Positions 9,608 to 63,280 of a stretch of DNA of 64,000 bases are shown here, piece after piece. Every line of letters begins with the position of its first letter. The first letter of the stretch is position 1. The DNA is from Nannocystis bainbridge (GTDB taxonomy: Bacteria > Myxococcota_A > Polyangia > Nannocystales > Nannocystaceae): NCBI RefSeq assembly GCF_028368995.1, contig NZ_JAQNDL010000002.1, positions 1,937,776-2,001,775 of the forward strand, in the 5' to 3' direction. A program made the position numbers and the translations under genes. The notes below the pieces were generated by a model that saw only the letters and a list, made by a program, of their open reading frames with translations, made no database searches and was not told where the DNA came from.

Positions 9608-9795
9608 GGACATGTCCCGCGGGCCATGTCTCCTGCGCCACGGCTCATCCCCGGCTCGCAGCGCCGCCCTCGACGCGGGCAGCCGGGGTAGCGCTACGCT
9701 GACGCCTGCCCACCAGGACATGCCACAAAGGACATGTCCATGACGACATGTCCTCGAGCGCATGCCCACAAGCGCATGCCGCAAAGGACATGTCC
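9608..9795. repeat. 14-bp-phased CATG array (2 + 6 units)
   Basis: CATG at 9611, 9625; and 9719, 9733, 9747, 9761, 9775, 9789. Confidence 0.95.
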
Positions 9796-29261: not shown

Positions 29262-29290
29262 TCGCCGACCCGCGGACGGCCAGGTGAAGC

Positions 29291-30268
29291 ATGAAGGGCG
29301 AGCGTTGCGTGCTGTTACTGTCACACAGCGCCGAACCGCTGTGCACCGACGCCGTCGCGGGTGCCCTCGCGCGCCGCGGCGCGCGGGCCGTGCGGCTCGA
29401 CACCGATGATTTCCCGGCCGCGCTGGCGCTGCGCGGCGAGCTCGGGTTCCCCGGCGCGCGCGGGCTCGTGCTCGACGATCGGCCGCTCGTCGCCGACTCG
29501 GTGTGGCTGTGGCGGGTCTGGCCGGCCCGGCTCGATCCGCGCCTGCCCGCCGAACACCACGAGGCCGCCCAGCGCGAGAGCTTCGCCGCCCTGCGCGGCC
29601 TGCTGGACCTCTTGCCCGGCGTCCCCTGGATCGATGCGCTCGACGCCGGTCGCGCGGCCGACGACAAGGCCCGCCAACTCCGCCTCGCCTGCGACCTCGG
29701 CCTCACGATCCCTCCGACTCTGATCACCGCCGAACCCGCGGCCGTGCGCGAGTTCTTCGCCGCGCACGCCGGCCAGGTCGTCGCCAAGCTGCAGACGCCG
29801 CTGCGCCAGACGATGCGCGGCGGCGGCCTGCCGACCCGCCTGCTGCGGCGCGACGACCTCGAGGCGCTCGCCGGCCTCCGTCACTGTCCGATGATCTTCC
29901 AACGATATGTCCCGAAGGCCATGGAGCTGCGGATCGCCTGGGTCGACGGCCGGGCCCTCTGCGGCGCGCTCGACGGCGCCCGCTGCGGCGTCGACTGGCG
30001 CTACGAGTGCAGCGCGGACTGGCAGTCCCACGCCTTGCCCGAGCCGGTCCACCTGCGCCTGGCCGCGCTCATGGCCCGGCTCGGCCTGCGCCAGGGGGCC
30101 ATCGACATGATCGTCACCCCGGCCGGCGACTACGTGTTCCTCGAGGTCAACCCCACCGGCGAATGGATGATGCTGGAGAAAGAGCTCGGCCTGCCGATCA
30201 GCGAGGCGCTGGCCCAGGCTCTGCTCCGGCTGGCGAATGATTCACAGCGAGAGGCATGCAAGCCATGA
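29291..30268 (+). CDS. Graspetide ATP-grasp ligase, MvdC/MdnB-like (probably amide-forming)
   Basis: LLLSHS, RLDTDDFP, PPTLIT, LRHCPMIFQ..PK..ELR, DWR, FLEVNPTGEW. Confidence 0.9.
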   Translation: MKGERCVLLLSHSAEPLCTDAVAGALARRGARAVRLDTDDFPAALALRGELGFPGARGLVLDDRPLVADSVWLWRVWPARLDPRLPAEHHEAAQRESFAALRGLLDLLPGVPWIDALDAGRAADDKARQLRLACDLGLTIPPTLITAEPAAVREFFAAHAGQVVAKLQTPLRQTMRGGGLPTRLLRRDDLEALAGLRHCPMIFQRYVPKAMELRIAWVDGRALCGALDGARCGVDWRYECSADWQSHALPEPVHLRLAALMARLGLRQGAIDMIVTPAGDYVFLEVNPTGEWMMLEKELGLPISEALAQALLRLANDSQREACKP

Positions 30269-31269
30269 AGGTCGTGATGATCACGTTCTCCGGCGATCAG
30301 ACCGGCAAGCTCGACGAATTGCGGCAGCACCTCGAGGCGCGCGGCGCCGAGGTCCTGCGCTTCGACACCGACCGCTTCCCCTGCGAGGCCCAGGCGTGGT
30401 TCCGCCAGGACGGCGAGCGCGAGGAGCTCCGCCTGCGCTGCGACGGCCAGGAGGTTCGGCTCGAGCCCGGCGACGCGATCTGGTACCGGCGCGCGCGCTG
30501 GGCCGAGAAGCTGCCGCCGTCGCTGTCGCGCCCGCTCCGCCACGGCTGCGTGCTCGAGTCCGAAGCGCTGCTGCGCGGCATGCTGGCCGCCGCGCCCTGC
30601 TTCGTCATGGACCCGCCCGACCGCGTGCGCGAGCGCGGCCACAAGCCCGCCCAGCAGCGGCTGGCCCGCGAGCTCGGCCTCGCTACCCCGCGCACCTTGA
30701 TGACCAACGACCCGGCCGAGGCGCGCGAGTTCATCACCTCCTGCCCGCACGGCGCGATCGCCAAGATGCTGTCCGCCTTCGCCGTGCACGACCTCGACGG
30801 CGACGAGCAGGTCGTCTTCACCACCGCCCTGCGCGACGACCACCTCGCCCGGCTCGACGACCTGCGCCTGGCGCCGATGGTGTTTCAGGAGCAGGTCCGC
30901 AAGCGGCTCGAGCTGCGCATCACCGTGGTCGGCAGCCGCATGTTCGCCGCCGCCGTCGACTCGCAGCGGGTCGCCGGCGCCGAGGTCGACTGGCGCGAGC
31001 GCGGCGTCACCCTGCTGCCGTCGTGGCTCCCGTACGAGCTCCCGCCCGCGGTCGAGCGGGCGCTGGAGCGCTACATGGAGCGCATCGGCATGCAGTACAG
31101 CGCGATCGACATGCTCGTCGATCCCGCCGGGCGCCACGTATTCCTCGAGGCCAACCCCGCGGGCGAGTGCTTCTGGCTCGAGTACTATCCGCCGCACTTC
31201 CCGCTGACCGCGACGATCGCCGACGTGCTCGTCGGCGCCCCCGGAGCGCGGCGGACGACCCGTTCGTGA
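30256..31269 (+). CDS. Graspetide ATP-grasp ligase, MvdD/MdnC-like (probably ester-forming)
   Basis: RFDTDRFP, IWYRR, PRTLMTNDP, KMLSAFAV...VVFT, PMVFQE..K.LELR, DSQ..DWR, FLEANPAGE. Confidence 0.92.
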   Translation: MQAMKVVMITFSGDQTGKLDELRQHLEARGAEVLRFDTDRFPCEAQAWFRQDGEREELRLRCDGQEVRLEPGDAIWYRRARWAEKLPPSLSRPLRHGCVLESEALLRGMLAAAPCFVMDPPDRVRERGHKPAQQRLARELGLATPRTLMTNDPAEAREFITSCPHGAIAKMLSAFAVHDLDGDEQVVFTTALRDDHLARLDDLRLAPMVFQEQVRKRLELRITVVGSRMFAAAVDSQRVAGAEVDWRERGVTLLPSWLPYELPPAVERALERYMERIGMQYSAIDMLVDPAGRHVFLEANPAGECFWLEYYPPHFPLTATIADVLVGAPGARRTTRS

Positions 31270-31276
31270 CGCCGCG

Positions 31277-33085
31277 ATGACGACCGCGGGCGAACCCTCG
31301 ACCGACGGCCTGCGGGTCCGCCTCGCCCGCGGCGCCCGGGCCGTGCGGATGGCCTGGCGCAGCGCCCCGACGATCGCCGCGCTGTGGATCGCCGCGCTCA
31401 CGATCGCCGCGCTCGTGCCGATCGCCGTCGCCTGGATCGGCAAGGCCCTCGTCGACGCGATCGTCGCCGGCGCGACCGACCGGGCCCTCGCGTGGCTGGT
31501 CGGCGAGATGCTGCTGATCGTCGGCCTCGGCCTGGTCCAGCGGGCCGCCGGCACCTTGCGCGGCCTCCTCGGCGCCCGCCTCGGGCTCGCGGTCAACCTC
31601 GAGATCCTTCACAAGACCCAGCACCTCGAGCTGCGCCACTTCCAGGACCCCGACTTCTACGATCAGCTCACGCGGGCCCGCCGCGAGGCCAGCCACCGGC
31701 CCCTCGCCGTCGCCGCCGAGCTGCTCGGCCTGGCCGGCGCGCTCGTCACCTTGCTGGGCTTCGTCGCCCTCCTCCTCAGCTACAGCGTCATCGCCGTCGG
31801 CATGCTGCTCGTCGCCGCGGTCCCGGCCGCCCTCGCCGAGCTGCGGTTCTCTCGCGCGACCTTCGAGCTGCGCAACCGGCGGGCCAGCGACGCGCGCATG
31901 CTCGGCTACCTCGAGCACGTGCTCGCCAGCGACGAGCACGCCAAGGAGGTGATGACCCTCGACCTCGGCCCGCTGCTGCTCGAGCGCTGGCGCCGGCTCG
32001 GCGAGGGGCTGTGGCACGAAGAGCGCGGCCTCGCCATCGCCCGCCTGCGCTCGGTCGCCCTGCTGTCGCAGCTCGGCACCCTCTCGTTCTACGGCTGCTA
32101 CGGCGCCGTCGTCGTCCAGGCCGCCCGCGGCCAGCTCGGCCTCGGCGAGCTGACGATGTACGCCTTCGTCTTTCGCCAGGGTCAGGCCGCGTTTCAGACC
32201 ATCCTGCTCGGGCTCGGCGCCCTCTACGAGCACGACCTCTACATGTCGAACCTGCTGCGCTTCCTCGCCATCCCCGTGGCGCCGACGCAGCCTCCGCGGC
32301 TCCCCGCCGCGCCCGCGCGAGGCGAGCGCGGGATCCGCTTCGAGGGCGTCGGCTTCCGTTACCCCGATCAAGACGGCTTCGCGCTGCGCAACATCGACCT
32401 GTCCATCGGGCCAGGCGAGACCGTCGCCCTCGTCGGCCCCAACGGCGCCGGCAAGTCGACGTTCATCAAGCTGCTCGCGGGCCTCTACGAGCCGACCGAG
32501 GGCCGGATCCTGCTCGACGGCCGCGACCTCCGCGACATCCCGCGCCCCGAGCTGCGCCGCCGGCTCGCCGTCGTCTTCCAGGACTACAATCAATACCAAT
32601 TGTCCGCGCGCGAGAACGTCGGCTTCGGCGACCCCGCCCACGTCGGCGACGACGCGCGGATCACCGCCGCGCTCGCGGCCGGCGGCGCCGCCGACGTCGT
32701 CGCCGCCCTGCCGGTCGGCCTCGACGCCCAGCTCGGCCGCTGGTTCGCCGGCGGCGTCGAGCTCTCGGGCGGACAGTGGCAGCGCATCGCCCTCGCCCGG
32801 GCCTTCATGCGGCGTGACGCCGACGTCATGATCCTCGACGAGCCGACCGCCGCCCTCGACGTCGACGCCGAAGCCGAGGTCTTCACGCGCGTCCGCGAGC
32901 TCGCCGCCGGCCGCATCGTCTGCCTGATCTCGCACCGCTTCGCCAACGTGCGCGTGGCCGACCGGATCGTCGTGCTGGCCGCCAGCGGCGTCGTCGAGCA
33001 GGGCGACCACAGCCGGCTGCTCGCCGCTGACGGCGTCTACGCGGCCATGTTCCGCAAGCAGGCCCGCGGCTACGCGTGCGACTGA
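31277..33085 (+). CDS. ABC exporter, permease plus ATPase (MdnE-like cluster transporter)
   Basis: TM domain; GPNGAGKST; LSGGQWQRIALAR; ILDEPT; ISHR. Confidence 0.93.
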   Translation: MTTAGEPSTDGLRVRLARGARAVRMAWRSAPTIAALWIAALTIAALVPIAVAWIGKALVDAIVAGATDRALAWLVGEMLLIVGLGLVQRAAGTLRGLLGARLGLAVNLEILHKTQHLELRHFQDPDFYDQLTRARREASHRPLAVAAELLGLAGALVTLLGFVALLLSYSVIAVGMLLVAAVPAALAELRFSRATFELRNRRASDARMLGYLEHVLASDEHAKEVMTLDLGPLLLERWRRLGEGLWHEERGLAIARLRSVALLSQLGTLSFYGCYGAVVVQAARGQLGLGELTMYAFVFRQGQAAFQTILLGLGALYEHDLYMSNLLRFLAIPVAPTQPPRLPAAPARGERGIRFEGVGFRYPDQDGFALRNIDLSIGPGETVALVGPNGAGKSTFIKLLAGLYEPTEGRILLDGRDLRDIPRPELRRRLAVVFQDYNQYQLSARENVGFGDPAHVGDDARITAALAAGGAADVVAALPVGLDAQLGRWFAGGVELSGGQWQRIALARAFMRRDADVMILDEPTAALDVDAEAEVFTRVRELAAGRIVCLISHRFANVRVADRIVVLAASGVVEQGDHSRLLAADGVYAAMFRKQARGYACD

Positions 33086-45272: not shown

Positions 45273-45352
45273 GAACATGTCCTTTTAACCATGTCCTTTT
45301 CGACATGCTCATTTCACCATGCCCTCGACGACATGCTCTTCACGACATGTCT
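45273..45352. repeat. 14-bp-phased CATG array (6 units)
   Basis: CATG at 45276, 45290, 45304, 45318, 45332, 45346. Confidence 0.95.
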
Positions 45353-46781: not shown

Positions 46782-48290
46782 TCAGGCACCCCAACCGCCG
46801 ACCACCGGCGGATTCGCGTTCGATTTCCAAAGCTTCGGGCTCATCGCCCCGTCCAGAGTCACCCACCCGCGCGGGTCGATGTTCGCCGGCGCCTGCCAGC
46901 CGAACGGATCGATCGCGTAGCGGTGGAAGTTGTGCGAGCCGCCGGTGCACGCCGTGCAGCTGTCGGCGTTGGGAACGAACCACCGATCCTTCTGCGTCGG
47001 CGTGCCGACATTCGTCTCGCGCATCACCGTGAGGTGCAGGTGCGGCCCGGTCGTCCAGCCGCCGTTGCCGACGTCGCCCAGGACCGTGAACTTGGTGACG
47101 TTGGTGCCGACCGCCGGCGTGACCGTGCGCTTGACGTGGAAGTAACCCGCCACGAAGCTCTCGCTGTAGGTCACCGGCGACGTCACGACCTTGTGGCGGA
47201 CGTACACCTCGCCCTGCAGCAGCCCGTCCCAGCCCGAATTGCGGTAATCGATGTAATCACCGGCCGCGATGGCGTTCACGCAGGCGACGCTGGGGTCGCC
47301 CCAGCCCGAGCACACCGCCGGCCAACCGGCCGCGAAGTCGCGGTTGATGCAGCCCCCGTTCTTCTTCTTGGCCGCCTCGGCCGTCGCGCACGCCACCGCC
47401 GAGGTCTGATAATCACGGCTGACGATCACCCGGCCGTCCGTCATTGCATAGAGGTCAGTGTTCTCGGGCGCGCCCCAGTCCCAGCCGTCGTGATCGTCGA
47501 TATAGTTGGCGGAGATCGCGTGGCCCTTGAAGTTGACCTTCGACGCCAGCACGTCGAGGTACGGCAGCAGCGCCCCGAACATCCCGGTGTTCAGCGTCGG
47601 CGCGCCCTCGCGAGCGAAGTCGACGCCCGTCCCGATCGACGAGAACGAGGCCGGCGCGCGCTCGAAGATCGGCAGCTCGAGCGGCGACACCGTCAACACG
47701 CAGTTGGGCTCCTCGGCGTCCACCGACGCGTTGAACGCCCACGTGAGCGGATCGCCGCCCGACCCGCGCCAGATCCCCGGGCCCCACGTCTGACCGTCGC
47801 ACCAGATCACCGCCTCGTTGGTGCCCGCGGCCGAGAACAGGCCGGCCTTGCGGATCGTACCTGCCCCGTGCTGGCTGACCAGATAGCCGCACGGATCGCC
47901 GCCGTTGGTGTCCCACGAATACGCCCAACCGCCGCCGGGCCACGTCATGCTGCAATAGTGGCCGTAGCCGGCCGGCTCCGCGATCTCGCCCGCCGCCAGG
48001 CTCGGCCGGGCCGGGACTGCCAGGTCGGCTGTCTCCGGGGACAGGTGCTGCGACATCTCGCCCGGCGCGAACACGCGGACATCGGGCGCGTCCTCGGTGC
48101 CCGCGAACCCGGCGAACGCCGCGTTCGCCTCCTCACCGACGAGCCGATCGTGCTCGGCCACCTCGGTGATCGCCCGCGGGCCGTCCGGCGCGATCGTCGG
48201 CGCATCCTCGGCCTCCGCCGCGGGCGCCTCGTCACAACCACCAATAGGGGCACATAGACCGATCCATAGCACGTGCTTGAAGGTATTCAC
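46782..48290 (-). CDS. Lipoprotein with M23 metallopeptidase domain
   Basis: Lipobox IGGC; HDGWD (HxxxD), YFH, VGNGGWTTGPHLH; AGGAG RBS before GTG 48290. Confidence 0.88.
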   Translation of the reverse strand: MNTFKHVLWIGLCAPIGGCDEAPAAEAEDAPTIAPDGPRAITEVAEHDRLVGEEANAAFAGFAGTEDAPDVRVFAPGEMSQHLSPETADLAVPARPSLAAGEIAEPAGYGHYCSMTWPGGGWAYSWDTNGGDPCGYLVSQHGAGTIRKAGLFSAAGTNEAVIWCDGQTWGPGIWRGSGGDPLTWAFNASVDAEEPNCVLTVSPLELPIFERAPASFSSIGTGVDFAREGAPTLNTGMFGALLPYLDVLASKVNFKGHAISANYIDDHDGWDWGAPENTDLYAMTDGRVIVSRDYQTSAVACATAEAAKKKNGGCINRDFAAGWPAVCSGWGDPSVACVNAIAAGDYIDYRNSGWDGLLQGEVYVRHKVVTSPVTYSESFVAGYFHVKRTVTPAVGTNVTKFTVLGDVGNGGWTTGPHLHLTVMRETNVGTPTQKDRWFVPNADSCTACTGGSHNFHRYAIDPFGWQAPANIDPRGWVTLDGAMSPKLWKSNANPPVVGGWGA

Positions 48291-48618
48291 GGTGAACTCC
48301 TGGGCCTCGTCTCCGCGAGGCACGAACGTCAGGTGACCGTGCGCGGCGGAACAATTGCGGCCCGTGTCCCCTTCGCGGCGATTCGCCGCGAAGGTCCGAC
48401 GTCACGCAGCGCCTCGCAATTGATCGGCCACCCGCCGACACCACCACGCGCTCGACCTCCGCGAGTCGACCCCCGCCGCGAGCCCGTCGATTCGTGCGAT
48501 TGCCTCGAACGACACGCTGCGCCCGGCCACCTCGCGGACCCGCGCCTCCACGCCTCCGCACCGCGGCGCGGTTTCGGCCCGTCAGCTCCGCGATCATCGG
48601 TGCTAAGGTCGCCTGCGC

Positions 48619-50097
48619 GTGGACAACGAGCCCAAACGCTACGTGTACAACAAGCAGGCCGGGGCCCTGCAGGAGGCCGCAGCGGCCCCTCCGGGCGTGC
48701 GCACGCGGCTGGCGATGCGCCCGAGCAGCAGCATCGCCCAGTCGCTGCTGCCGTCCCAACTCGACGACCAGGCCGCCGCCAACGCGGCCCCCGAACCGCT
48801 GCAGCGCGACAGCTCGCGGCTGCCCCGACCCCCGCGGCCCGCCGACAGCGGCCGCGATCCCATTCGACCGACCCGGAGGCCCGGCATGTTCTCATTCACC
48901 ATCGAGGACGGCGAGCACGTCCTGATGATCCACAAGAACGGCGCGATGGAGGAGCTCGTCGGGCCGAAGCGCGTGTCGACCCTCGGCCGCACCTTCCGCC
49001 GCATGGACCACTACGTCGCCCACCCCGGCGAATTCCTGGTCGTGCGCTACCGCGACGGTCGCCAGGAGCACCTCGTCGGCCCCGCGCACCTGTGGCTCGA
49101 TCCGCGCAAGCACCTCTCCGTCACCCGCGAGGAGGGCTTGCAGCTGGCCGCCAAGGAGGCCGTCGTCATCTACGCCCGCGGCGACGCCGGCGAGGTCACG
49201 CGCCGCGTGCTGCAGGGCCCGGCCGTGTTCGTGGCCCAGCCGGGCGAATGGCTGCACTCCTTCTCGTGGCACGGCTCCTCCGGCACCGGCTATCGCAAGG
49301 TCCCGAACGCCCTGGTCTTCGAGAAGCTGTGGCTGATGCCCGACCAGATGTACCACGACGTCGAGGACGTGCGGACCGCCGACGACGCCGTCATCACGGT
49401 GCGGCTCATGATCTTCTTCGAGCTCGTCGACATCGAGCTCATGCTGGCCACCAGCCACGATCCGATCGGCGACTTCGTCAACGCCGCCACCAGCGACGTC
49501 GTCGATTTTCTCGGCCGCCACGACCTCGCCTCCTTCAAGCTCCACACCGACCAACTCGGCGACCTCGCCACCTACCGCCAGCTGACCGCGCGCGCCGGCC
49601 AGTGCGGCTACCGGATCGGCAAGGTCGTCTACCGCGGCTTCGACGCCCCGCCCTCGCTGCAGCAGATGCTCGATCAGGCGATCGAGTCGCGCACCCGCCT
49701 GCAGCTCGAGCGCGCCACCCAGCAGCAGGCGCAGGAGCTCGAGGACTTCAAGCTCGAGCGCCAGCTCGGCCGCGGTGAGCGTCAGCGGGCCGACGGCGCC
49801 GCCGAGCAGGCCCACGCGCTGGCCCTCGAGAAATCGCGCCGCGCCGCCGCGATCGAGGCCGACGCCGCCCGCAGCGAGTTTCAGCGGGCCCAGCGACGCC
49901 TCGACCAGGAGCGTGCCCTCGCCGACGAGCGCGCCCGCCATGACGAGGAGAGCCGCCACCTCGCCGCCCTGCACGGGCTCGGCGTCGACCTCACCGCGCT
50001 CCTCACCCAACACCGCGCCGACCAGGTCATCGAGCTGCGCGGCGACGGCGAGGGCGCCCACGTCCACGTCGACGCGCCCCGCCGCGAGCCGCGCTGA
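48619..50097 (+). CDS. Short major vault protein (MVP)-like protein: vault-type repeats, SPFH shoulder, coiled coil (alternative start ATG 48886 with GGAGG)
   Basis: Three ...GP repeats (ELVGPK, HLVGPA, RVLQGPAVFVAQPGE); LMPDQMYHDVEDVRTADDA shoulder; LQQMLDQAIESRT plus long helical tail. Confidence 0.75.
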   Translation: MDNEPKRYVYNKQAGALQEAAAAPPGVRTRLAMRPSSSIAQSLLPSQLDDQAAANAAPEPLQRDSSRLPRPPRPADSGRDPIRPTRRPGMFSFTIEDGEHVLMIHKNGAMEELVGPKRVSTLGRTFRRMDHYVAHPGEFLVVRYRDGRQEHLVGPAHLWLDPRKHLSVTREEGLQLAAKEAVVIYARGDAGEVTRRVLQGPAVFVAQPGEWLHSFSWHGSSGTGYRKVPNALVFEKLWLMPDQMYHDVEDVRTADDAVITVRLMIFFELVDIELMLATSHDPIGDFVNAATSDVVDFLGRHDLASFKLHTDQLGDLATYRQLTARAGQCGYRIGKVVYRGFDAPPSLQQMLDQAIESRTRLQLERATQQQAQELEDFKLERQLGRGERQRADGAAEQAHALALEKSRRAAAIEADAARSEFQRAQRRLDQERALADERARHDEESRHLAALHGLGVDLTALLTQHRADQVIELRGDGEGAHVHVDAPRREPR

Positions 50098-50098
50098 G

Positions 50099-50175
50099 AG
50101 ACATGTCCCTGAAGGCATGGCCTCGGGGACATGCCTTATTCGACATGTTCCAATGAACATGTCCGAAGGGACAAT
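50099..50175. repeat. 14-bp-phased CATG array (5 units)
   Basis: CATG at 50102, 50116, 50130, 50144, 50158; fills the convergent gap. Confidence 0.95.
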
Positions 50176-51114
50176 CTACACCAGCCGCGCCGCGGCCGCC
50201 CGGATCGCCGCCCGGATCGCGGCCTCGTCGGCCTCGTCGGGCGCCTGCAGGGCCACCGGGAACGCCGCGGTGAGGTCGATGAGCACGTCGAGCTCGACCT
50301 CGTCGAGGATCGCCTGGCGGTCGTCGCGGCCCCACTTCGACGCCGCGCTGGCGATCCGCACCGGGTTCGTCAGCCGCTCCGCCCACGCCACCAGGGCCGC
50401 GCGATCGGGGCGCTGGTTCGGGTCCCAGGCCTCGGCCTCCTGGAACCGCTGCTCGTCGAACTCGGCGATCTTGCGCTTGTAGGTCGGCCGCGTGCCGGGA
50501 CGCGCGCGCGCGTCGGGGCGGACCACCAGCCCCTCGGCGAAGTTGTCGGCCAGCCCCGGCAAGCCCAGCGCGGCCGGCACGCGCGTCGGCGCTCGCGTCG
50601 GCGCCGCCTCGACGTGCGGGCGCGGCCCCGTGCGCACCACCGGCGGCACCATCATCCCTGTCTCTCGGGACAGCTCAGCCAGCTCGCTCCACCCCAGCAG
50701 CTCGCCCTCGTCGTCGTCGCTCGTCGCCACCAGCGCGTCGAAGGCCGCCCAGCGCAGGTCGGGCGCGTACCAGATCCCCGTCTGCACCGGCTGCAGCCCC
50801 GGCACCGCCGCCACCTCCGCGTGCGGATAGCCGCCGCCGAACAGCTCGCCGTAGAACACCACCAGCGGCGCGCCGAGCCGGCCAGCCGCCGCCCGCGCGA
50901 CCTCGCTGAGCCCGGCCCGCACCAGCTGCCAGCCGAAGAACGGATCGCCGTCGGCCAGCCACGCCTTGCGCTTGCCGAAGCGCACCTGCTCGCCCGCGAC
51001 CGCGATCAGCATCTGCGCCCCGTGGATCTTCTCGAGGGCGACCCATGGCCCGCCGGGGACGAGCCCGAGCGACTCGCCGGGCCCCGCGATCTTGCCGTAG
51101 TAGCGGTGACGCAC
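50176..51114 (-). CDS. RNA ligase, Rnl2 family (GTG start 51114 or 51156)
   Basis: Motif I WVALEKIHGAQ; FGKR; YGELFGGGYPH; AFD; AEGLVVRP; YKRK; C-terminal RIASAASKWG. Confidence 0.88.
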   Translation of the reverse strand: MRHRYYGKIAGPGESLGLVPGGPWVALEKIHGAQMLIAVAGEQVRFGKRKAWLADGDPFFGWQLVRAGLSEVARAAAGRLGAPLVVFYGELFGGGYPHAEVAAVPGLQPVQTGIWYAPDLRWAAFDALVATSDDDEGELLGWSELAELSRETGMMVPPVVRTGPRPHVEAAPTRAPTRVPAALGLPGLADNFAEGLVVRPDARARPGTRPTYKRKIAEFDEQRFQEAEAWDPNQRPDRAALVAWAERLTNPVRIASAASKWGRDDRQAILDEVELDVLIDLTAAFPVALQAPDEADEAAIRAAIRAAAARLV

Positions 51115-51291
51115 CGCGCCAGGGTAGCCGAACCGCGCCCCGTCGCGCGCGGCCACCGGCGCGCGCGCCCGCGCTTTCGTCTTTGCATCTCATGTCCCGA
51201 GAGACATGTCCGAAAGCACCGGGCCACTCGCGCGCGCCCGCGGACTCCGCCTCCCGCCGCGCGCCGCTCTGTGGCACTGTCGGCGCCCGCC

Positions 51292-52056
51292 ATGCTCGCC
51301 AAGATCTACGTCCAGCGCGACCCGACCACCGGCGAGTTCATCAACAAGAACGTCTACAACGCCTGGTACGGCTTCACCAAGATGGGCGTGTGGGCCGAGT
51401 CGTTCGTGTGGTCCGACCTCTACGAGGGCCGGCTCGCGCTCGATCGTGACACCGCCGTGATCGGCGGGATCCTCACCGTCCGCACCGCCCTCGCCCGGCT
51501 CGGCGCCACCGATCCCGAGAACCTCGACTACCCGCCCGTGCTCGAGCCGTTCCTGCGCCGGCGCGTGCGCCGGGCCTCGATCCGCGAGGCCCACGCGCTG
51601 TGCCGCGACGATCGCTTCGACCCGCCCGTGTTCATCAAGCCCGTCACCGGGCAAAAGGAGTTCACGGGCCACGTGCTCGCCGTCTACCGCGACCTCTTGC
51701 GCACGGCCGGCTGGGCCCACGAGCAGCCCGACACGCCGGTGTGGCTGTCGGAGGTCGTCGACTTCACGGCCGAGTGGCGCTACTTCGTCCACGCTGGCGA
51801 GATCGTCGGCGTCGGCCACTACCACGGCGACCCGCTGCGCGCCCCCGATCCCGGGGTCGTGCGCGCCGCCGTCGCCGCCTGGACCGACGCCCCCTCCGCC
51901 TACGTCATCGACTTCGGCGTGCTCGCCGACGGCACCACCGCGATGGTCGAGGTCAACGACGGCTTCGCGTTCGGCTGCTACGGCCTCAACCCCTACGCCC
52001 ACGCCCGCATGCTGGCCGCCCGCTGGGCCGAGATGGTCGGCCTGGACCGCGCCTGA
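51292..52056 (+). CDS. ATP-grasp protein, R2K clade (DUF4343-like)
   Basis: DYPPVLEPFLRRRV, VFIKPVTGQKEFTG, SEVVDFTAEWRYFV, IDFGV, VEVNDGFAFGCYG. Confidence 0.85.
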   Translation: MLAKIYVQRDPTTGEFINKNVYNAWYGFTKMGVWAESFVWSDLYEGRLALDRDTAVIGGILTVRTALARLGATDPENLDYPPVLEPFLRRRVRRASIREAHALCRDDRFDPPVFIKPVTGQKEFTGHVLAVYRDLLRTAGWAHEQPDTPVWLSEVVDFTAEWRYFVHAGEIVGVGHYHGDPLRAPDPGVVRAAVAAWTDAPSAYVIDFGVLADGTTAMVEVNDGFAFGCYGLNPYAHARMLAARWAEMVGLDRA

Positions 52057-53954: not shown

Positions 53955-54106
53955 GTGCGACCCAATACGAGCTCGACCCCATGTTATTCGCGCGCTCGCG
54001 CCGCCCCGGCCGCGTCGTGCCTCACACCCCCGGCCATCACTCAGGGACATGTCGCTCGGGACATGTCCGATCGTCCCGAGCGCCCGAGGTCGACAGCCCC
54101 CGCCCC

Positions 54107-54667
54107 TCAGTGGACGCGATAGCCCCCGTGCTCCGCAGCGATCTCGTTGTAGCGGGCGAACCCCAGGATCCACTTGCGGCCGTCCTCGCGGGCCACCCCG
54201 GCGTCCGGGAAATAGTCCTGGGCGATCACCTCCACGTGCTCGCGCAGCTTGCGGGCCAGCACCGCGCACTCCTCCGGCGTCACCAGCCAGCCATCGTTCG
54301 ACTGGAACTTGAACGCCCCCACGCGCCCGTCCTTCAGCGATGACGACTCCACCGCCGCCTCGTGCGCCTGCAGGTACGCGCGCGCGGCCGCCAGCTCCGC
54401 CTCTGTCGGCGCCGGCCCCTCTGCCGCCTCGCCGCGCAGCGCCGCAAACGCCGCGAGCACCCGCTCCTCGTCGAGCTCGCCCAGCTCGAGCTCCGGGATC
54501 GGGGCCGCCTCCCCGTAGTGGATCGCGTCGGCCCACTCGAGCGCGCCCACGGTCGTCGCCATGCCCCGCACGTTGAAGCGGTAGTACCCCGCGACCCCGC
54601 TCGAGTTCGGCAGCTCGTCCTCGTCCACCGTCGGGGGGGTGCGCACCATCTGCAGGTCGTAGCCCAT
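54107..54667 (-). CDS. Hypothetical protein
   Basis: Coding-like composition; MGYD start, KFQSNDGWLVTPEEC, HGGYRV end. Confidence 0.8.
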   Translation of the reverse strand: MGYDLQMVRTPPTVDEDELPNSSGVAGYYRFNVRGMATTVGALEWADAIHYGEAAPIPELELGELDEERVLAAFAALRGEAAEGPAPTEAELAAARAYLQAHEAAVESSSLKDGRVGAFKFQSNDGWLVTPEECAVLARKLREHVEVIAQDYFPDAGVAREDGRKWILGFARYNEIAAEHGGYRVH

Positions 54668-54757
54668 CGTCCAGGCCTACCATGGATCGCCCGCGCGCGG
54701 CGTCGCCTCACGCCCGCGCCTGCGGCCTGCGAGCGGCCTGCGTGCCAAGCTCTCGCC

Positions 54758-56200
54758 GTGCCGCCCTCCGCACGTTATCGGCCGGATCCCCGGTACCTCG
54801 CGCTCGGCGACGGCTTCGCCGACGTCGTCGCCCCCGCGCGCTTCCCCAGCCATGTCCTGCGGCACCGCGACGAGCGCTGGGCCGCGCGGGTCGGCCTCGA
54901 CAGCCTCGGCGACGACGAATGGGAGCGGCACTTCGCCCGCTTCGAGCCGCTGCCCGGCAACCTGCCCGACCCGCTCGCCCTGCGCTACCACGGCCATCAA
55001 TTCGGCAGCTACAACCCCGCGCTCGGCGACGGCCGCGGCTTCTTGTTCGCCCAGCTGCGCGACGGCTTCGACGGTCGCCTGCTCGACCTCGGCACCAAGG
55101 GCAGCGGCGCCACCCCGTACGCCCGCGGCGGCGACGGCCGCCTCACCCTCAAGGGCGGCGTGCGCGAGATCCTCGCCGCCGAGCTGCTCGCGGCCCGCGG
55201 CGTCGACACCTGCAAGATCCTCAGCGTGTTCGAGACCGGCGAGCGGCTCATCCGCGGCGACGAGCCCTCGCCCACGCGCTCGTGCGTGCTCGTGCGGCTC
55301 AGCCACTCCAACCTGCGGTTCGGCACCTTCCAGCGCCACGCTTACCACCGCGACCTCGCCCGCCTCGGCGCCCTGGTCGACTACGCCGTCGAGCACCACT
55401 TCCCGGCCGCGCGCCGCGACGACCTCGCCGTCACCACCGCCGCGCTGGTCCGTCTCGTCGCCTGTCGCGCCGCCGCCACCGCCGCCGCCTGGACCGTCGC
55501 CGGCTTCGTGCACGGCGTCCTCAACACCGACAACCTCAACCTCACCGGCGAGAGCTTCGACTACGGCCCCTGGCGCTTCCTGCCGACCTACGACCTCGGC
55601 TTCACCGCCGCCTACTTCGACGAGACCGGCTTCTACGCCTTCGGTCGCCAGCCCAACGCCGTGCTGTGGAACCTCGGGCGCCTGGCCGAGGCCGTACTCC
55701 CGCTGACCACGCGAGATGTCCTCGAGGACAGCCTCGGCGCGTTCGAGCCCGCCTTCCACGCCGCCGTGCGCCGCGCCTTCCTCGACCGCCTCGGCCTCGC
55801 CCCGCGCGGCGACGCGGCCGACGACGGCGTCATGGACGCCTGCTACGCCTTCCTCGCCGCGCGCCGCCTCGACCTCGACCGCTTCTACTTCGACTGGTAC
55901 GGCGGCGAGGCCAGCGCCGCCCGGGCCCTCGCCGGCCCGGCCGCCGCCCACTACGACCACCCCGAGTTCATGGAGGTGCGCCGCGCCTGGACCGCGCACG
56001 CCCCCGCCGCCCCCGAGCGCCTCGGCCACCCGTACTACGGCGGCGCCGCCCCGTGCTCGCTGCTCATCGACGAGGTCGAGGCGCTGTGGGCCGCGATCGC
56101 CGACCGCGACGACTGGGCCCCGCTGGCTGCCAAGCTGGCGGCGATCCGCGAGTTCGCCACCCTCCACGGCCGCGACCCGTCGGTGATGGACATGCCCTGA
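54758..56200 (+). CDS. selO: Protein adenylyltransferase SelO/YdiU
   Basis: YHGHQFG..NPALGDGRG, KGSGATPYARGGDGR, GFVHGVLNTDN, DYGP. Confidence 0.95.
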   Translation: MPPSARYRPDPRYLALGDGFADVVAPARFPSHVLRHRDERWAARVGLDSLGDDEWERHFARFEPLPGNLPDPLALRYHGHQFGSYNPALGDGRGFLFAQLRDGFDGRLLDLGTKGSGATPYARGGDGRLTLKGGVREILAAELLAARGVDTCKILSVFETGERLIRGDEPSPTRSCVLVRLSHSNLRFGTFQRHAYHRDLARLGALVDYAVEHHFPAARRDDLAVTTAALVRLVACRAAATAAAWTVAGFVHGVLNTDNLNLTGESFDYGPWRFLPTYDLGFTAAYFDETGFYAFGRQPNAVLWNLGRLAEAVLPLTTRDVLEDSLGAFEPAFHAAVRRAFLDRLGLAPRGDAADDGVMDACYAFLAARRLDLDRFYFDWYGGEASAARALAGPAAAHYDHPEFMEVRRAWTAHAPAAPERLGHPYYGGAAPCSLLIDEVEALWAAIADRDDWAPLAAKLAAIREFATLHGRDPSVMDMP

Positions 56201-63187: not shown

Positions 63188-63280
63188 TCGCATGCCCCGG
63201 GGACATGCCCTCTCGAGCATGTGCAAAAAGACATGTCCACTCTAACATGTCCATCCAGACATGCCCCTTCAAACATGTCT
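63188..63280. repeat. 14-bp-phased CATG array (7 units)
   Basis: CATG at 63191, 63204, 63218, 63232, 63246, 63260, 63274 (first step is 13 bp). Confidence 0.95.

Follow-up and report, generated by a model that had tools for sequence, protein, structure and literature searches.

A locus of three adjacent genes was analysed in a stretch of 64,000 nucleotides from Nannocystis bainbridge (contig NZ_JAQNDL010000002.1), hereafter called the window. The genes encode a short protein with a vault-like fold, a putative ATP-dependent RNA ligase of the Rnl2 family and an R2K.2 ATP-grasp protein, and an earlier sequence-only reading had combined them into a candidate module, in which a cage scaffold would work with an RNA-joining and a protein-joining enzyme. 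The analysis revealed RNA ligase genes beside R2K.2 genes at a frequency above that expected from a rough chance model, and a pairing of the ligase with R2K is plausible and may be new. On the other hand, the arrangement of the three genes together is a genus-level synteny. The explanation that we favour, and to which we give an even chance, is that the locus consists of three separately transcribed genes, that is, three transcription units and not one module, in which the RNA ligase and R2K are a facultative pair acting on damaged tRNA or the translation machinery, while the vault-like gene and the nearby SelO gene are bystanders.

The G+C content of the window is 72%, and genes were called by third-position G+C (GC3), which picked out one reading frame for each of the three proteins (Table 1). 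A longer start of the ligase is possible at 51156, with its homologues beginning at the position that gives 312 residues, and the 254 residues of the R2K protein are the length usual among its homologues. The gene identities, orientations and spacings given in the sequence-only reading were all borne out by the GC3 frames, the Pfam matches and the coordinates. The vault-like gene converges on the ligase gene, with 78 nt separating the stop codons; the distance between the divergent ligase and R2K genes, which had been put at about 180 bp, measures 177 nt between the starts; and the open reading frame (ORF) of SelO, said to lie 2.7 kb further on, is found 2.3-2.7 kb past R2K.

The link between R2K and RNA ligases was observed in a survey centred on R2K. 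Annotated phage and plasmid collections were searched by tblastn with the R2K protein of the window, which matched 12 phage and 24 plasmid records, and with a Firmicutes homologue, which matched 8 and 10, respectively. The survey comprised 26 distinct loci (9 from phages and 17 from plasmids); seven plasmid matches, several of them near-duplicates of included loci, fell outside this sample. An RNA ligase gene is present within 5 kb of the R2K.2 gene in four of the 26 loci, and in three of these it is the immediate neighbour. In the Burkholderia jumbo phage FLC9, the genes for the RNA-repair protein RlaP, one ORF, RtcB and R2K are placed on one strand, with a gap of 12 nt between RtcB and R2K, and in the Thermoanaerobacterium plasmid pMU3262 RtcB is followed by R2K on one strand, 80 nt apart. 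A Pontibacillus megaplasmid carries an Rnl1-type ligase (PF09511, E = 1.5e-11) head-to-head with R2K, the layout found in Nannocystis, and in the uncultured phage LR745208 a PF09414 ligase is located downstream of R2K, at a distance of two genes. A phmmer search with six ligase queries found no further ligases in the other 22 loci.

Three unrelated families are represented among the partner ligases (RtcB twice, Rnl1-type and PF09414-type), and in the tree of R2K the four ligase-linked genes together with the Nannocystis gene occupy three major branches that are separate from one another. The separate R2K branches and the unrelated partner ligases speak for a repeated association and against one inherited block. 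Three immediate adjacencies were observed against 0.14-0.42 expected (Poisson P 0.0004-0.009) in a chance model that assumes 1-3 ligase genes in every replicon. Hence, what had been proposed as an RNA-joining enzyme working with an R2K ligase finds support as a pair, in 4 of 26 loci and with three ligase families, whereas the vault-like gene does not hold up as its third part, as described below.

Other neighbours of R2K were also recorded in this survey. In the P. mendocina plasmid pPME5, R2K is located directly after a vapBC pair annotated as tRNA(fMet) endonuclease. In an Alkaliphilus plasmid (survey locus L100, 7947-9892), hflK-hflC, which encode SPFH proteins, are placed 2.5 kb downstream of R2K, and in a P. 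amygdali plasmid (L093, 6550-7428) a Fic-family gene is found about 0.9 kb downstream; each was seen once, and both neighbourhoods are probably due to chance.

Concerning its identity, the R2K protein of the window matches the Pfam family R2K_2 (PF18299) with E = 4.3e-42 and 143.9 bits, and R2K_3 with a lower score (116.2 bits). In alignments of 115 and of 26 homologues, K123, K129, E168-x-R170, D214 and E227-V-N229 are invariant (numbering from the alternative start at 51271). The R2K.2 family has been defined by two lysines of the RAGNYA domain and by the ExR, D and ExN motifs (PMC4431377). All of them are present here: the two lysines are K123 and K129, and the last motif is ExN, not the ExGD of R2K.3. 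As judged from these residues, the ATP-grasp active site is intact, and the distribution of the family is patchy. The protein is predicted to be an ATP-dependent amide or peptide ligase, and this ligation is a prediction in the literature too (PMC4431377). According to the founding paper (Burroughs, Zhang and Aravind 2015, PMC4431377), the targets of R2K.2 remain elusive; its accessible text reports links with R2K.3, GNAT and ADP-ribosylglycohydrolase genes and states that there are no further linked genes. The gene of the window shares with the published family the Pfam match, the lysines, the motifs and the patchy distribution, phages included, and differs in that its neighbour is an RNA ligase. 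RNA ligases are mentioned neither in the text of the founding paper nor in one of its supplements (PMC4431377), and in the accessible part of a jumbo-phage survey R2K figures as a peptide ligase for hijacking the host, with RNA repair discussed apart from it (PMC7824862). No published link between R2K and RNA ligases was found in a search that had the RNA-repair survey of Burroughs and Aravind (NAR 2016) outside its range.

The ligase matches the Pfam family RNA_ligase (PF09414) with E = 5.1e-16 and 59.7 bits (gathering cut-off 27). Its residues K29-x-H31-G32, E90, F125-D126, E194-G195 and K213-x-K215 (numbering of the 312-residue form) align with the motifs of T4 Rnl2 and are invariant in 21 homologues; we take them to be the nucleotidyltransferase motifs I (with the KxxG lysine), III, IIIa, IV and V, and an Rnl2-type ligase with these motifs intact is what the sequence-only reading had described. 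The best sequence matches in the PDB are Trypanosoma REL1 (1.2e-9) and T4 Rnl2 (5e-7), with which the ligase shares the nucleotidyltransferase motifs and the two-domain fold. Its predicted model (predicted local distance difference test, pLDDT, 84) consists of a nucleotidyltransferase domain and the C-terminal helical domain of the Rnl2 type, and the best fold match is full-length T4 Rnl2 (2hvr/2hvq) over both domains (E = 3e-15, about 340 columns), with about 18% identity in the fold alignment.

Assignment as an orthologue of T4 Rnl2 was considered and not made, as the ligase reaches 70.6 bits against the cut-off of 197.15 of the NCBIfam Rnl2 equivalog TIGR02307, and matches it with the N-terminal domain alone. 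Because this cut-off is missed by far, the protein is classed, on its motifs and predicted fold, as an Rnl2-family enzyme and not as an orthologue of T4 Rnl2. It also differs from T4 Rnl2 and REL1 in being chromosomal, in occurring across Myxococcota and in having no kinase/phosphatase or other repair partners.

A second survey was centred on the ligase, since its flanks take in both neighbours. With the alignment of 21 homologues, 99 relatives were found in species-representative genomes. The comparison covered the best 80 loci, including flanks of at most 10 kb per side; they come from many genera of Myxococcota and from some Actinomycetota, Planctomycetota, Chloroflexota and others. By tblastn, R2K is found beside the ligase in 5 of the 80 loci, each from a Nannocystis species, and four of these five, but no other locus, have the vault-like gene; profile hidden Markov models run over 12,087 six-frame ORFs of the 80 loci gave the same counts. 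Four general SPFH queries found no SPFH gene in the other 76 loci. The three genes are thus kept together in four of five Nannocystis species plus the window. In the remaining species, N. exedens, the ligase, R2K and the M23 peptidase are present and the peptidase gene directly follows the ligase, with no vault-like gene or remnant between them (L002, 10891-11488). Hence, the presence of the vault-like gene varies within the genus. In N. pusilla Na p29 (L005, 9100-10889), the ligase and R2K are each split over two frames by apparent frameshifts; another gene of that locus is split too, and assembly errors and real decay are equally likely.

The ligase itself is widespread in Myxococcota, where its homologues are 46-61% identical across many genera, and it has no conserved neighbour. 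When the genes around it in the 80 loci were clustered, no shared family extended past a single genus. The largest of these families are common ones, namely ABC ATPases (9 loci, in mixed positions), Ser/Thr kinases (5 loci) and a Sorangium histidine kinase (8 loci); this clustering used 780 GC3-filtered ORFs out of 4462, and genes in loci of low G+C may be lost to the filter. In seven Streptomyces loci (L071, L073-L077 and L080), a gene with a metallo-beta-lactamase fold is located directly upstream of the ligase homologue (about 1 kb) on the same strand, and it may be a genus-level operon partner of the ligase.

The two spacers of the locus were also analysed. The palindromic core GACATGTC belongs to a dispersed intergenic repeat that often occurs as tandem copies at a period of 14 nt. 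Five to six such units fill the convergent spacer (50098-50175), and two copies are present in the 177-nt divergent spacer between the ligase and R2K. In the 64 kb there are 31 matches, against a mean of 0.68 in shuffled sequences, and, judged from their positions, nearly all are intergenic, with any orientation of the flanking genes. Per kb, the five Nannocystis loci have 0.29-0.70 matches and the remaining 75 have 0-0.14. The repeat is genome-wide in Nannocystis and not specific to this locus. A private operator shared by the ligase and R2K was considered for the conserved GACATGTC pair of their spacer and rejected, as the pair is this same repeat.

Regarding these data, it has to be considered that the three genes could be unrelated and that the adjacencies of R2K and ligases could arise by chance in gene-dense mobile elements rich in RNA-repair genes. 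This is a serious alternative, although we hold it to fall short of an even chance, and several observations speak for it and against a functional pair. R2K is absent from 75 of the 80 ligase loci, and 22 of the 26 R2K loci have no ligase within 5 kb, which leaves a link that is facultative at best. In Nannocystis the ligase and R2K genes are divergent and do not form one operon, and conservation within one genus says little. No protein fusing R2K to a ligase was found: when the 12 longest proteins out of the best 150 representatives were scanned, none had a second Pfam domain. The motif in the spacer between the two genes is the genome-wide repeat and does not point to co-regulation. Moreover, jumbo phages are rich in RNA-repair genes according to the accessible part of their survey (PMC7824862), and the links named in the available text of the published R2K analysis are the three given above, to GNAT, R2K.3 and ADP-ribosylglycohydrolase genes (PMC4431377). 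The chance model is rough, with the ligase genes per replicon assumed and not counted; the sample is small, and the RtcB case was noticed before the test was framed. In addition, many phage and plasmid neighbours are annotated as 'hypothetical', and the Pfam scan covered only some of them.

Against chance stand three immediate adjacencies and a fourth ligase two genes away among 26 loci, the involvement of three unrelated ligase families and of distant R2K branches, and Poisson probabilities that stay low under generous assumptions; the Nannocystis pair is a further independent instance. The sequence-only reading had itself warned that the linkage might be accidental. This warning fits the vault-like gene, which appears to be a chance neighbour, and applies less well to the ligase and R2K, as an RNA ligase gene is near R2K in 4 of 26 R2K loci elsewhere.

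If the ligase and R2K are a facultative pair, both would serve a single pathway by which the translation machinery is restored once nucleases have damaged it. Enzymes of the Rnl2 type seal RNA ends that carry a 5'-phosphate and a 3'-hydroxyl, as at nicks in duplex RNA. The end chemistry given in the accessible part of the jumbo-phage survey agrees with this (PMC7824862). The ligase could work as a stand-alone sealer that rejoins broken RNA with such ends, most likely tRNA. R2K would spend ATP to attach an amino acid or a short peptide to a protein or to an RNA-linked carboxylate in the same pathway. It is unlikely to prepare RNA ends, because the partner ligases use opposite end chemistries. 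The R2K relatives RimK and CDC123, the latter a eukaryotic translation-initiation factor, act on translation components, as described in the accessible text of the founding paper (PMC4431377), and for this reason a protein or an RNA-borne carboxylate of the translation machinery is the best guess for the target of R2K. The pair would resemble the Pnkp-Hen1 and RtcA-RtcB operons in having an RNA ligase presumed to heal nuclease damage. It would differ from them in its partner, an ATP-grasp amide ligase, and in that no end-healing kinase/phosphatase, methyltransferase or cyclase was found among the ORFs of the window that were scanned.

That scan covered 43 ORFs, leaving out the regions of about 24.1-25.8 kb and 40.1-42.2 kb, where no ORF passed the filter, and it detected no Pnkp, Hen1, RtcB or TROVE domains. 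The absence of a Pnkp, Hen1 or RtcB partner noted in the sequence-only reading is in agreement with it. Furthermore, ARAGORN predicted no tRNA genes in the window, Rfam gave no match at the gathering threshold and one chance-level match at E<=1, and no tRNA-like or Y-RNA-like sequence was found near the three genes.

The vault-like protein was examined at the levels of sequence and fold. Its Pfam scores are sub-threshold for Band_7 (E = 0.02, 15.4 bits, cut-off 23.6) and Vault_3 (E = 0.096, 13.3 bits, cut-off 28.8), there is no Pfam match to MVP_shoulder, and neither the single protein nor a profile of 24 sequences gave a sequence match in the PDB. Membership in the MVP (major vault protein) family at sequence level was excluded on these scores together with the lack of a significant PDB match. 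On the other hand, the AlphaFold model has a disordered stretch of about 88 residues at its N-terminus and an ordered part that runs from about residue 90 to residue 455. The parts that come after the N-terminus are beta repeats (about 120 residues), an SPFH 'shoulder' and a helix (about 110 residues). Foldseek ranks MVP first (E = 1.4e-11, about 430 columns); the top 12 matches are all MVP (E 1.4e-11 to 2.7e-8), and stomatin, erlin, HflK/C and flotillin come next with about 1e-6. In the ESM Atlas, the domains Band_7, MVP_shoulder and Vault_3 occur in its language-model neighbours. The label 'MVP-like' is thus apt for the fold and goes too far for the sequence.

In the order of its parts, from beta repeats to shoulder to long cap helix, the model agrees with MVP and with the SPFH cages (stomatin, HflK/C, flotillin and erlin), and the protein probably forms SPFH-type assemblies. 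MVP itself assembles into a closed cage with RNA inside. A homodimer prediction with two copies of residues 88-460 scored 0.00, which speaks neither for nor against assembly. MVP has nine repeats and about 860 aa, and the bacterial homologues in print average 822 aa (10.1101/2023.11.10.566534), whereas this protein has 492 aa and two to three repeats, as estimated from the roughly 120 strand residues of the model. Because of that published average, the short vault-fold family is set apart as distinct from the published bacterial MVP homologues; a description of a large short vault-fold family in Myxococcota was not found in the accessible text of two preprints on MVP.

This family has 1238 homologues, mostly in Myxococcota, against 123 for R2K with the same tool. 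It shows 59% mean column identity over 24 sequences, a conserved N-terminal tip ahead of the disordered linker, and many invariant histidines and tryptophans (for instance H131, H135, H151, H165, H213, H218, H246 and H280). Conservation of this strength, with invariant histidine and tryptophan residues, would be unusual for a mere scaffold.

In the proposal of a three-gene module, the vault-like protein would be a cage that houses the ligase and R2K, perhaps with SelO, for recovery from toxin or phage damage. The vault fold of the 492-aa protein and the retention of the trio in four of five Nannocystis species and the window are in line with this proposal. It also has a parallel in other bacteria, where a neighbourhood of a Band-7 protein, RtcB and a tRNA-like RNA (b7a-tRNA) has been proposed (Burroughs and Aravind 2016, as cited in the accessible text of 10.1101/312249). 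The present locus is like that neighbourhood in that an SPFH-fold protein adjoins an RNA ligase. However, the ligase here is an ATP-dependent Rnl2-type enzyme (PF09414) and not RtcB, the window holds no tRNA-like gene or Y RNA that could be found, and the adjacency is confined to Nannocystis.

Seen from the ligase, the neighbourhood survey shows no recurring vault-like, R2K or SPFH neighbours outside that genus, with a vault-like or other SPFH gene beside the ligase in none of the 75 loci from elsewhere. The gene is missing at the N. exedens position, the locus has three transcription units, and the family is far larger than that of R2K. A module of a cage with two ligases, as first suggested for this locus, is consequently very unlikely, and the vault-like protein would rather serve another conserved role in Myxococcota, with its gene and SelO as bystanders in local synteny.

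Another origin for the pair could be an integrated phage or other mobile element, of which the ligase and R2K would be a remnant in the Nannocystis chromosome. Both Rnl2-type ligases and R2K.2 genes occur in jumbo phages, in line with the phage records searched here and with the accessible part of their survey (PMC7824862), and a variable insertion spot is located directly beside R2K, in the interval up to an ORF of 186 aa. The genes at this spot in other Nannocystis species are nevertheless ordinary cell genes (a multihaem cytochrome, a GDSL lipase and a rhodanese). The G+C content is constant across the locus, no integrase, tRNA or other phage gene was found nearby, and the 46-61% identity of the ligase homologues across Myxococcota genera fits vertical descent. 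Hence, we regard a mobile remnant as highly improbable.

In the window strain alone, the variable spot is occupied by a gene whose product ends in a pretoxin-HINT domain. No toxin domain follows this domain, and none of the five other Nannocystis loci holds a counterpart of the gene. When seven proteins were compared with the PADLOC-DB models, six had no match and the coiled coil of the vault-like protein had one weak match (E = 0.009). The promoter scan gave no promoter-like site, and the terminator scan gave weak terminator-like hairpins only. At a greater distance, a classical Band_7/SPFH gene (1508-2410, E = 6.9e-25) has no relation to the locus of the vault-like, ligase and R2K genes, and two MvdD-type ATP-grasp genes that stand side by side ahead of an ABC transporter (29288-33085) look like a microviridin-type peptide cluster.

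Table 1. Features of the three-gene locus and its surroundings, in positions of the window.
Feature	Positions	Strand	Basis or remark
M23 peptidase	46782-48323	-	Wider neighbour
Short vault-fold/SPFH protein, 492 aa	48619-50097	+	GC3 frame; fold match to major vault protein
Convergent intergenic spacer	50098-50175		78 nt between vault-like and ligase stop codons
Rnl2-family ATP-dependent RNA ligase (predicted), 312 aa	50176-51114	-	PF09414, motifs, fold
Divergent intergenic region	51115-51291		177 nt between ligase and R2K starts
R2K.2 ATP-grasp enzyme (predicted), 254 aa	51292-52056	+	PF18299, motifs; alternative start 51271
Protein ending in pretoxin-HINT domain, 593 aa	52173-53954	-	Pfam
ORF without family, 186 aa	54107-54667	-	Wider neighbour
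SelO	ORF 54362-56200	+	Pfam E 1.7e-120
GACATGTC repeat sites	9731-9795, 45274-45352, 50100-50170, 51185-51210, 54046-54067, 63230-63280, others

The tempting idea of a 'mini-vault plus RNA repair' fails the neighbourhood survey, and it is the recurring link of R2K to three unrelated ligase families that would direct work on R2K towards tRNA and translation repair. This link would also tie the bacterial R2K.2 proteins to the translation role of CDC123. A bolder version, which we put forward tentatively and consider rather doubtful, is that R2K.2 proteins are dedicated accessory partners of RNA ligases of any chemistry in the tRNA and translation repair of phages, plasmids and some bacteria, where the ligase would reseal the RNA and R2K would tag or mend a component of translation. 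If this were true, the R2K.2 family would gain its first functional context, and a descent of the eukaryotic CDC123 from such a repair or conflict system would be suggested.

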